Under the pieces are notes generated by a model. That model was not told the origin of the DNA. It saw nothing but the letters and a program-made list of their open reading frames with translations, and ran no database searches. A DNA stretch of 64,000 nt from a virus. The DNA is taken from IMG/VR virus record IMGVR_UViG_3300019850_000189, positions 64,001 to 128,000 of that record. The stretch is one strand, 5' to 3'. A program made the translations under genes and the position numbers. Of this stretch, positions 23,232 to 44,583 are shown piece by piece. Each line of letters starts with the position of its first letter. Position 1 is the stretch's first letter.

Positions 23232-24038
23232 ATGTCGCAAGGCATGTAAAGGCGGCTTGGCAACCGCCACCGATCGCAAGATCGGCCAATTCAAACAAGC
23301 TGACATCCCTATGGCTTCGCATGCCTGCGGAGCTTGCACCGACATTGGACGAAGACAGCATAGACTGAGGGTAACACTGTAAGCTTATGTTTCTCGTGGA
23401 AAGGATTATTCGTAACCATAACCAATTAGATGTTAGGATGAACAGTAGTTATATTGTCTGAGCTTTTGCCAGCAAGGGCTTTATAGCAGTTTGATAGGTT
23501 GGTGGACATCCAGTACACCGGTCTTGAAAGACGGTTTAGTATCCGGCAGGAGAAAGACAGACAGCGTCCGGCATTTTGTAGGTCAAAAGCCTATGAAACT
23601 GGTGGATCAGCGCGTTGTCGCTATGGGGAGACCCATTTTTCAATGATAGCTCAAAGGTAGAGCACATGTCTTAGAAACACATTATGCTGTTGGTTCAACT
23701 CCAACTCATTGGCTTTATCCGCAAAGACTGGTCCGGTATTGAGTGAAAGCAGCTTAATTCCATGCCCTTCGGGAACATGGACTTTCCGAGGCTCGCAAGG
23801 CTAAAGAAAGTTAGTTGTAAGAAGCACGGCGAGGTTAGCGCCTCCTTATAGCTCGCAAGGCTGACGGTATTCTGAGAACTGAGTAGCTCAATGCGTCACT
23901 GGAAATGCCGCCAGTATAAAAAGGCAGTTGTGTTGATTTACCGTTCCTGGAACGGTGGATAAGTTCTTAAGGCCCGGTTAGCGGCCGAGCTGTACGAGGG
24001 CAAAAGGATTGACATATAGAGTTGTAGTCTCAGGCTTT
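23232..24038 (+). ncRNA. GOLLD-like large structured RNA (~800 nt; ends approximate)
   Basis: Region with no plausible + strand ORF, dense in GCAA/GAAA/TTCG-capped hairpins, inside a tRNA cluster; segments GCAGGAGAAAGACAGACAGCG, TGAAACTGGTGGA and 3' TTGTAGTCTCAGGCTTTA resemble GOLLD as recalled. Confidence 0.7.
23640..23713 (+). tRNA. tRNA-like module embedded in the GOLLD-like RNA (loop CT TAG AA, weak anticodon stem)
   Basis: TCAATGA/TCATTGG acceptor, GCTC/GAGC D-stem, GTTGG TTCAACT CCAAC T-arm; only 3 bp in the anticodon stem. Confidence 0.6.
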
Positions 24039-28541: not shown

Positions 28542-28613
28542 GCGCGCGTAGTTCAATGGTAGAACAGCGTCCTTATAAGGCGTAATTTCCCCGTCCAAAT
28601 CGGGGCGTGCGCA
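28542..28613 (+). tRNA. tRNA-Ile(TAT)
   Basis: GCGTC CT TAT AA GGCGT. Confidence 0.85.
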
Positions 28614-28626
28614 AGATGAGTGATAT

Positions 28627-28863
28627 AGTTTGACGGTTCCGGTTCTACGCTGTATATGATAACATATATAGAGGAAACACCGAACATCTCTGCTCTAATG
28701 CAGGAGGCGAAAGCTGTTTGGACTGCAGAGGATGCGACCACAAATAACTCTAGGTGGTGAGCAGGCCAATGATGAGATGGTAGTGGGCAGCTGAAAAGCC
28801 AGTTGAAAAAACTGAGATAGATGTAGAACAAAAACAGAATTCGGGTTATAGGAACCGTCAACT
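28627..28863 (+). ncRNA. rnpB: compact RNase P RNA (~235 nt)
   Basis: P1 TTGACGGTTCC/GGAACCGTCAA; P2 GTTCTAC/GTAGAAC; P3 hairpin; CR-I GAGGAAACACCGAAC pairing with CR-V ACAGAATTCGGGTTA (P4 with bulge); P5 CATCTC/GAGATG; P7 TGCTC/GAGCA; CR-IV-like AGATAGATG. Confidence 0.85.
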
Positions 28864-28879
28864 TAATATAGCATAAGGA

Positions 28880-35975: not shown

Positions 35976-36052
35976 GGCCAGGTGGCTGAAATGGAATAGG
36001 CACTCGGTTGCAACCCGAGATTATGCAGGTTCAAGTCCTGTCCTGGTCTCCA
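35976..36052 (+). tRNA. tRNA-Cys(GCA) with encoded CCA
   Basis: CTCGG TT GCA AC CCGAG; U73 then CCA. Confidence 0.9.
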
Positions 36053-36126
36053 GCCCCCGTAGCTAAACGGAACAAGGCGCTGCGCTTCGAACGCAGATAT
36101 TCCAGGTTCGAATCCTGGCGGGGGTA
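36053..36126 (+). tRNA. tRNA-Arg(TCG)
   Basis: CTGCG CT TCG AA CGCAG; abuts tRNA-Cys with no spacer. Confidence 0.9.
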
Positions 36127-41148: not shown

Positions 41149-41220
41149 GTGCCCGTAGCTCAGTTGGTGTAGCTGGAGGCTCTAACCCTTCGTGTGTGGG
41201 TTCGAATCCCACCGGGCACT
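41149..41220 (+). tRNA. amber-suppressor tRNA (anticodon CTA)
   Basis: GTGCCCG/CGGGCAC acceptor; GGAGG CT CTA AC CCTTC; GTGGG TTCGAAT CCCAC. Confidence 0.8.
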
Positions 41221-44174: not shown

Positions 44175-44519
44175 GGGGGTGAATTGGCTTCGACAGAGAG
44201 TAACTGACACTAAAATTTATGCCAAGGTTCGCCAGGCCTTGTAAAACAGGGCGACTTATTAAAATAAATGCTGATGAAAATTTAGCACTTGCCGCTTAAT
44301 TAGCGGCTGTTCTTCTATTATTTGTTTTTGGTAGTAGAAAGAGCATCAGAAACAAAAACTCGTCAACTTACTCAAACTTGTAGGTAAGATGATTAAATTA
44401 TCCAAGATATTCTTTCTTTGGTCGCTTGAGAACCAAGATAGAAGAAAATAATCTCAAGATAAGCATATAAAAAGTAGTGGATTTCTCTCTGGACTCCGGA
44501 TCGTTACCGGACACCTCCA
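44175..44519 (+). ncRNA. ssrA: tmRNA; tag peptide (A)ADENLALAA* at 44270-44299
   Basis: 5' GGGGGTGAATTGGCTTCGAC, 3' GGACTCCGGATCGTTACCGGACACCTCCA with G3-U70; tag ORF ending LALAA*. Confidence 0.92.
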
Positions 44520-44583
44520 TATTATTAACCATTATAGGAGAATATTATAAAGTGTATGCTTCAGCCTGTTCCCAGGGGTATTA

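Follow-up and report, generated by a model that had tools for sequence, protein, structure and literature searches.

The window analysed here is a stretch of 64,000 nucleotides, bases 64001-128000 of a 189-kb IMG/VR record with an estimated completeness of 79%, and all of its 36 tRNA genes, like its tmRNA and its GOLLD RNA, lie on the plus strand. Within the 36-gene tRNA cluster of this large uncultured phage sits a gene for a miniature RNase P RNA (mini RNA), the only copy of it in the 189-kb record, and the tRNA gene just upstream of it likely belongs to the same transcript.

28542..28613, plus strand: tRNA-Ile(UAU), ending 16 nt upstream of the mini RNA
28630..28862, plus strand: miniature RNase P RNA gene, 233 nt, matched by RF00010 and by the family model R1

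A first-pass annotation made from the letters alone had read this locus as an RNase P RNA carried by a phage inside a tRNA array, its catalytic domain intact and its specificity domain much reduced, and covariance models, compensatory base changes and the genomic context all support that reading. The phage itself is remote from those in culture, its polymerase having at most 33% identity to that of any cultured phage. Searches by blastn of GenBank phages gave no match to the window region, nor to the DNA of one family relative. The nearest relative by polymerase (74% identity) is a 131-kb fragment that has neither an RNase P match nor similar DNA and carries no tRNAs at all; it is uninformative since the corresponding genome region is absent from the fragment. 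The immediate neighbour ORFs, including a small ORF directly downstream of the mini RNA, match no Pfam or PHROG family, and the small ORF has no relatives among viral contigs.

Several other RNA genes of the window deserve description. The GOLLD RNA lies at 23559-24036 (RF02032, 162.6 bits) with a tRNA-Leu(UAG) nested within it at 23640-23713. The tmRNA lies at 44175-44522 (RF00023, 145.6 bits), specifies the tag peptide ADENLALAA, and its precursor is a further possible RNase P substrate. An amber-suppressor tRNA (anticodon CUA) is found at 41149-41220, and counterparts occur in two relatives that both have a mini RNase P (L055:4924-4996 and L159:3605-3680); such tRNAs hint at TAG recoding.

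Homology and anatomy of the miniature RNA

RNase P RNA is the ribozyme that trims the 5' end of new tRNAs, and it is treated as cellular, essential and nearly universal. Judged by covariance models, the match of the phage RNA to it is far beyond chance. The first-pass annotation had proposed searching with the two bacterial models, and of these RF00010 (class A) is the best Rfam match at 62.7 bits, full-length over model positions 1-367 (window 28631-28864; E-values 6.8e-20 in a genome search and 4.9e-18 in a scan of locus L001), with RF00011 (class B) giving no match at E <= 0.001. The RF00010 score stays under the gathering score of 100 bits because around 140 model positions of the specificity domain (S-domain) are deleted, the mini RNA having about 39 nt there in the alignment, and an Rfam scan at gathering thresholds reported nothing at 28627-28863. 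In a sensitive scan the archaeal RNase P model RF00373 also aligned full-length (31.3 bits, E 1.9e-7, window 28630-28861). No match was found with RF02357 (archaeal type T), a weak negative since that model equally matched none of the control genomes. The family model R1, built here, gives 178.6 bits over model 1-207 (28630-28862), a score that is partly circular because the window copy was included in the R1 seed alignment. The plus strand folds with a z-score of -4.27, well under the shuffled controls. Rfam 15 holds no dedicated family for phage mini RNase P RNAs.

The anatomy was taken from the RF00010 alignment and then checked base by base, every helix being made of standard pairs; pairing figures and compensatory changes are those of the family described in the following section.

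28630-40/28851-61, plus strand: P1, 11 bp, closing every family member, 11/11 pairs compensatory
28642-48/28823-29, plus strand: P2, 7 bp, 89-92% paired in the family, 6-7/7 pairs compensatory
28651-58/28663-70, plus strand: P3 hairpin, 8 bp, loop AUAA, aligned to P3 of RF00010
28671-85, plus strand: CR-I, GAGGAAACACCGAAC, that is GAGGAAAC-A-CCGAAC, aligned to CR-I of RF00010 and RF00373
28676-78 and 28680-84 with 28840-47, plus strand: P4, 8 standard pairs between CR-I and CR-V with bulged A28679, 98-100% paired in the family, 4-7/8 pairs compensatory
28685-88/28731-34, plus strand: P5, 100% paired in the family, 4/4 pairs compensatory
28690-95 (J5/7) with 28759-64 (P17 loop), plus strand: P6 pseudoknot, 100% paired, 2 compensatory pairs
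28699..28727, plus strand: specificity-domain remnant, a P7 stub enclosing GAG, a 2-bp GAAA hairpin (28707-14) and UGUUUGGA
28699-703/28723-27, plus strand: P7, 5 bp, 97-98% paired in the family, 4/5 pairs compensatory
28735-37, plus strand: J5/15, C-G-A, the family and bacterial consensus being C-A-A
28738-41/28783-86, plus strand: P15, standard pairs
28748-50/28774-76, plus strand: P16, standard pairs
28753-54/28766-67, plus strand: P17, standard pairs
28779-81, plus strand: L15 GGU, in 20/20 members of a sample not chosen for GGU
28790-99 and 28800-14, plus strand: two small hairpins at the P18 position, GCU-GAAA-AGC and CAGUU-GAAAA-AACUG
28815-23, plus strand: CR-IV (J18/2), AGAUAGAUG, aligned to CR-IV of RF00010
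28834-39, plus strand: CR-V, ACAGAA, then the P4 3' strand UUCGGGUU and an A, to 28848

P1, P2, P3, P4, P5, P7 and CR-IV, which the annotation had listed in claiming all elements of the catalytic domain (C-domain), hold up both in the pair check and in the RF00010 alignment. Absent from its list were the P6 pseudoknot, P15, P16/P17, the two hairpins at the P18 position and the L15 GGU, the motif that pairs with the tRNA 3' CCA. Family comparison bears on several of the single-stranded elements also, in that the CAGAA of CR-V is nearly invariant in a sample not selected for CR-V and CR-IV is conserved even among members collected without CR-IV as query. By inspection P15 occurs across the family as CAC/GUG, CUC/GAG, CCC/GGG, CGC/GCG, CCA/UGG and CGA/UCG. 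The two-hairpin insert at the place of P18 is shared with L068 and L041 and is missing in most family members.

What the RNA lacks is nearly the whole of the S-domain. In the RF00010 alignment P8-P14 together with CR-II and CR-III are missing, and these are the readers of the tRNA D- and T-loops in bacterial RNase P RNA (PMC4919922). Just 19 nt are enclosed between the P7 strands (28704-28722) and 42 nt between those of P5. The annotation had put about 63 nt between the P7 strands, a figure that does not survive the homology-based placement of P7, and so the reduction of the S-domain is larger than was stated there. Two relatives have a T-arm-like hairpin with a canonical T-loop in place of the lost S-domain, GTAAAG-TTCGAAT-CTTTAC in L052:796-1047 (minus strand) and CAGG-TTCAAAT-CCTG in L165:2307-2606 (minus strand); such a hairpin might derive from a tRNA fragment that was captured, or might serve as a substitute T-loop module that binds the elbow.

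A family of reduced RNase P RNAs in large phages

The family comprises more than 45 sequences collected from large-phage contigs, mostly from inside same-strand tRNA arrays. Degenerate patterns spanning CR-I, the L15 GGU and CR-V yielded 16 loci in IMG/VR, and a clade-specific pattern yielded 6 further distinct loci in metagenomes. The loci from the first two pattern rounds are all RNase P-like RNAs, 197-284 nt long. Six of the first seven loci individually reach significance with Rfam models, and at 118.5 bits the 207-nt L046 lies above the RF00010 gathering score. Members of the window's clade share an architecture which the window copy also has, namely a GCUUAA-type P6 strand in J5/7, the P7 stub and a GGUGAGC P17 loop, and R1 aligned all members end to end. 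R1 scores are 124-195 bits for clade members and 50-90 for other reduced phage types, the best cellular match reaching 76.8. An exact scan of viral contigs for the CR-I 15-mer gave 34 matches, which were set aside as chance, CR-V being missing downstream.

The first-pass annotation had also called for homologues to be gathered and their covariation tested, and the collected family has compensatory changes in P2, P4 and P5. When the window helices were mapped onto 16 members of its clade (alignment A2), 84% of pair cells were paired as against 32-42% with the partners slid, the covariation score was 0.471 as against at most 0.122 for slid partners, and P4, P5 and P6 were 100% paired, with compensatory changes. 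A clade-only alignment (A4) gave 90.2% paired versus 32-41% slid, with both sides changed in 46 of 55 pairs. Because CR-I and CR-V were part of the earlier search patterns, a further sample (A5) was drawn with J5/7, the P17 loop and CR-IV as its only anchors, and it is the sole sample free of bias from CR-I and CR-V. It brought in 20 further members, many of them from contigs that span 160-530 kb; in this sample 92.9% of pair cells are paired versus 27-43% slid, and P4 is paired in 97.9% with 7/8 pairs compensatory. P4 and P6 are pseudoknots lying outside the covariance-model structure, and so their pairing is no artefact of model fitting. The window RNA genuinely belongs to this family of phage mini RNase P RNAs, which appears to be undescribed.

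The same comparison bears on two quite different readings of the locus. A decaying and functionless host rnpB fragment picked up by the phage would go some way to account for a score under the Rfam threshold and for the loss of half of the molecule, and is nevertheless most improbable: more than 45 diverged copies are reduced in the same way and have compensatory changes in all helices, the deletion falls exactly on the boundary between the domains, and the clade-specific pattern found no match in 185,579 species-representative genomes, the covariation by itself already contradicting decay. Protein coding is less credible still, and close to being dismissible. There is a 102-aa ORF on the minus strand across the gene (28553-28861), but it has no Pfam or PHROG match, and overlaps the tRNA-Ile, and relatives differ by indels whose lengths are not multiples of three and by paired substitutions.

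The setting of the window copy recurs in its clade, with 12 of the 16 clade loci lying in same-strand tRNA arrays. In L042, L059, L061 and L064 the mini RNA fills or abuts an inter-tRNA spacer, and in the window, L042, L055 and L064 it is preceded by tRNA-Ile(UAU). CheckV completeness values imply genomes of about 200-700 kb.

Differently reduced phage RNase P RNAs were also encountered (L046:10595-10800, L047:2250-2469, L048-L050, L053 and L054), several of which keep the bacterial GAGGAAAGUCCGGGC consensus; L046 keeps P8/P9-like hairpins and a CR-II-like ACAGAAAG, with P15-P17 apparently missing. A broad pattern gave 64 matches in cellular genomes: RNase P RNAs of archaea, chance matches among isolates and, in bacterial metagenome-assembled genomes (MAGs), a few minis of other types, none of them clade-like. 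The bacterial-MAG RNase P-like RNAs are 215-255 nt long and score 25-77 bits with R1 (L101:1015-1269, L084:4852-5087, L098:2633-2855, L119, L104, L087 and L082); seven of the bacterial-MAG loci are reported without tRNAs on the locus, L101 having two at a distance of about 1.1 kb. Either mis-binning of phage DNA or reduction of a cellular form could account for these RNAs.

Protein partner, substrates and proposed role

The RNA is homologous to RNase P RNA, has a structure supported by covariation, belongs to a family and is positioned in a tRNA array. Since every C-domain element has been kept, catalysis of 5'-leader removal on the phage's own pre-tRNAs is its most likely role, and the reading as a whole, that of a miniature RNase P RNA gene whose product would be the catalytic subunit for 5' processing of phage pre-tRNAs together with host RnpA, appears probable. 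The mini RNA would be co-transcribed with the tRNA array, released by the processing of tRNA ends, and would then fold and bind host RnpA; in several relatives its gene occupies an inter-tRNA spacer exactly. Leaders would be removed from the 36 phage pre-tRNAs and perhaps from the tmRNA precursor too. With no S-domain the measuring of the T-loop/D-loop elbow would be impossible, and the choice of cleavage site would fall to the acceptor stem, the leader, the protein and a 3' CCA supplied by the phage's own CCA-adding enzyme. Precedent for such an activity comes from the isolated bacterial C-domain, which can cleave pre-tRNA alone or together with RnpA, though more slowly and with weaker affinity (PMC4919922).

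The protein subunit seems not to come from the phage. That rnpA is missing from the window was rightly noted in the first-pass annotation and holds for the whole 189-kb record, and RnpA (PF00825) was found neither in that record nor in 15 related records, two of which are at least 96% complete. When the ORFs lying up to 4 kb from 23 loci were compared all against all, no family was shared beyond one close-relative trio. With no phage rnpA, use of the host RnpA by the mini RNA is the simplest inference.

The 3' CCA presents a related problem of supply, being encoded in one of the 36 window tRNAs. Contact of the L15 GGU with nearly all of the phage tRNAs would therefore need prior CCA addition. 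Beyond the window the same phage encodes a nucleotidyltransferase of the CCA-adding type (PF01743, 136.8 bits, G000:C1:183669-184025), and so the L15 GGU could engage its substrates after CCA addition. An enzyme of this type also fits with tRNA genes that lack an encoded CCA. The lone CCA-encoding tRNA is a tRNA-Cys that abuts tRNA-Arg(UCG) without a spacer (window 35976-36126).

In the first-pass annotation the loss of the S-domain was held to fit the many non-canonical T-loops among the phage tRNAs. Non-canonical T-loops do occur, with 27 of the 36 window tRNAs having the canonical TTC and 5 having TCC, but the proposed fit stands as a weak trend across the family, canonical TTC making up 79% near clade members versus 87% near phage forms with a partial S-domain. 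Eight unusual T-loops lie between 14792 and 31572, with TCC in Ala, Gln(UUG), Ile(UAU), Tyr and Lys(UUU) and ATC or CTC in Glu(UUC), Asp and His.

Retention of particular elements can be read in another way also. CR-IV, CR-V, P3 and P15, which are the contacts of RnpA in the Thermotoga holoenzyme, are all among the regions retained, and with no phage rnpA any function of the RNA must run via the host protein; this could suit a non-catalytic mimic that, by binding host RnpA or the leaders of pre-tRNAs, would divert or throttle the processing of host tRNAs as the phage takes over. The window copy is moreover without the metal-binding U of P4 (PMC3488217). Such a mimic is unlikely, however, given that the family keeps elements that serve catalysis and docking alone, with the bulged U and the L15 GGU each in 20/20 members of the unselected sample and J5/15 and CAGAA kept there as well, and given that a location among the arrays of its own substrates suits an enzyme better than a decoy.

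The base at the P4 bulge is the first of two peculiarities of the window copy. It is A28679 there and U in about 46 other members (A in 1 of ~47), the bulge position having been left free in most search patterns, and U is found in all 20 of the sample collected without CR-I or CR-V. The bulged A noticed in the first-pass annotation is therefore real in the sequence, and it is peculiar to the window copy and no trait of the family. The bulged uridine (U69 in E. coli, U52 in T. maritima) is universally conserved and binds a catalytic Mg2+ via its O4 (PMC3488217, PMC12710915). In T. maritima the U52C change lowers kcat/KM to 0.08 of wild type, a cost of about 13-fold, and the residue was described by the authors as 'not irreplaceable' (PMC3488217). 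With A28679 in place of this metal-binding U, the window copy may be slower than its relatives.

A28679 could be natural and tolerated, could be a recent mutation that impairs the RNA, or could be an error of assembly. The latter two lead to the suggestion that the family is catalytic and the window copy crippled or mis-read, through a recent inactivating mutation or an error in a single contig. An A in one of about 47 sequences is in keeping with that, as is the fact that no second copy of the window genome was retrieved. Against this, the window copy departs at 2 of the 72 columns that are conserved in 15 or more of 17 members (family range 0-9) and all of its helices are intact, so that by sequence the gene is otherwise intact with no sign of decay; further, about 8% of the activity remains in U52C and deletion mutants (PMC3488217), so that an A variant could still serve. 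A crippled or mis-read copy is improbable.

The second peculiarity is in J5/15, which is CGA in the window copy and CAA in 18/20 unselected members. The G is common also to L059, L068, L159 and L165, and a last viral scan for GCGAC members gave 13 matches of which 2 were true members. In E. coli the J5/15 adenosine contacts N(-1) of the pre-tRNA. Next to members with J5/15 CAA the tRNAs have U at N(-1) in 65% (109/168), an enrichment that is specific to this position, U being at 21-41% from -2 to -6 and A(-2) at 70%; the counts cover the window tRNAs at 14638-41220 and those of loci L042-L165. At the CGA loci U(-1) was counted in 7/36, 0/7, 0/2 and 1/10, and in 6/8 in L165, that is in 19% or less at four of five loci including the window, L165 being the exception. 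Several CAA relatives of the window are likewise low in U(-1). A link between the J5/15 G and N(-1) fits four of the five CGA loci, is confounded by relatedness, and is best taken as a lead. A bolder proposal is that the window copy is active without the bulged U, and that A28679 and the G in place of the first J5/15 adenosine are co-adapted to this phage's pre-tRNAs, which have mostly A or C at N(-1) where U is usual, so forming with the missing S-domain a private 5'-maturation system for the phage's own unusual tRNAs; this we regard as unlikely.

Comparison with known RNase P RNAs

No report of a phage-encoded RNase P RNA was found in full-text literature searches, and in a 2024 historical review phages appear only as substrate sources. 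The present family would raise the testable question of a phage takeover of tRNA maturation that extends across tRNAs, a CCA-adding enzyme, a tmRNA and a 5'-end ribozyme. For studies of structure and mechanism it also supplies minimal ribozymes from nature by the dozen, each of about 200 nt, and A28679 is an experiment made by nature at the active-site nucleotide that is conserved most strongly.

With the class A RNase P RNAs (E. coli M1/rnpB, T. maritima; RF00010) the phage RNA shares P1-P5, P6, P15-P17, the L15 GGU, CR-I, CR-IV and CR-V, and the one-base bulge of P4 is common to both, being A in the window copy and U in class A. It differs in its size of 233 nt as against 340-420 nt (PMC4919922), in being without P8-P14, CR-II and CR-III, in having two small hairpins that replace P18 and CGA in J5/15, in an RF00010 score that is under the gathering threshold, and in being encoded by a phage within a tRNA array.

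Reduction of RNase P RNA has been met with elsewhere. The type T RNAs of Pyrobaculum and Thermoproteaceae (also type P; RF02357; Lai et al. 2010, as cited in PMC4919922) are, as far as that citing account describes them, like the mini RNA in being about 200 nt and in keeping the C-domain with nearly no S-domain. They are however archaeal in sequence and work with several archaeal proteins, in contrast to the phage RNA, which is of bacterial type A in its P6, P15-P17 and L15. The RNase P RNAs of Mycoplasma fermentans and some CPR bacteria (PMC8172020) are bacterial like the mini RNA and have lost the peripheral helices P12, P13, P14 and P18, the loss of P12 alone being called highly unusual in bacteria (PMC8172020). 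Those RNAs are chromosomal and essential, and retain P8-P11 along with the S-domain core that reads the T-loop, whereas the phage RNA has lost the whole module. Alike in parts list are the engineered constructs consisting of the C-domain only (refs 75-77 of PMC4919922), which in the outline given there have the same elements as the mini RNA. Those constructs are laboratory truncations, whereas the phage truncation is natural, conserved and diversified, and the large-phage family shows a catalytic domain kept alone by selection in nature and in a bacterial setting.
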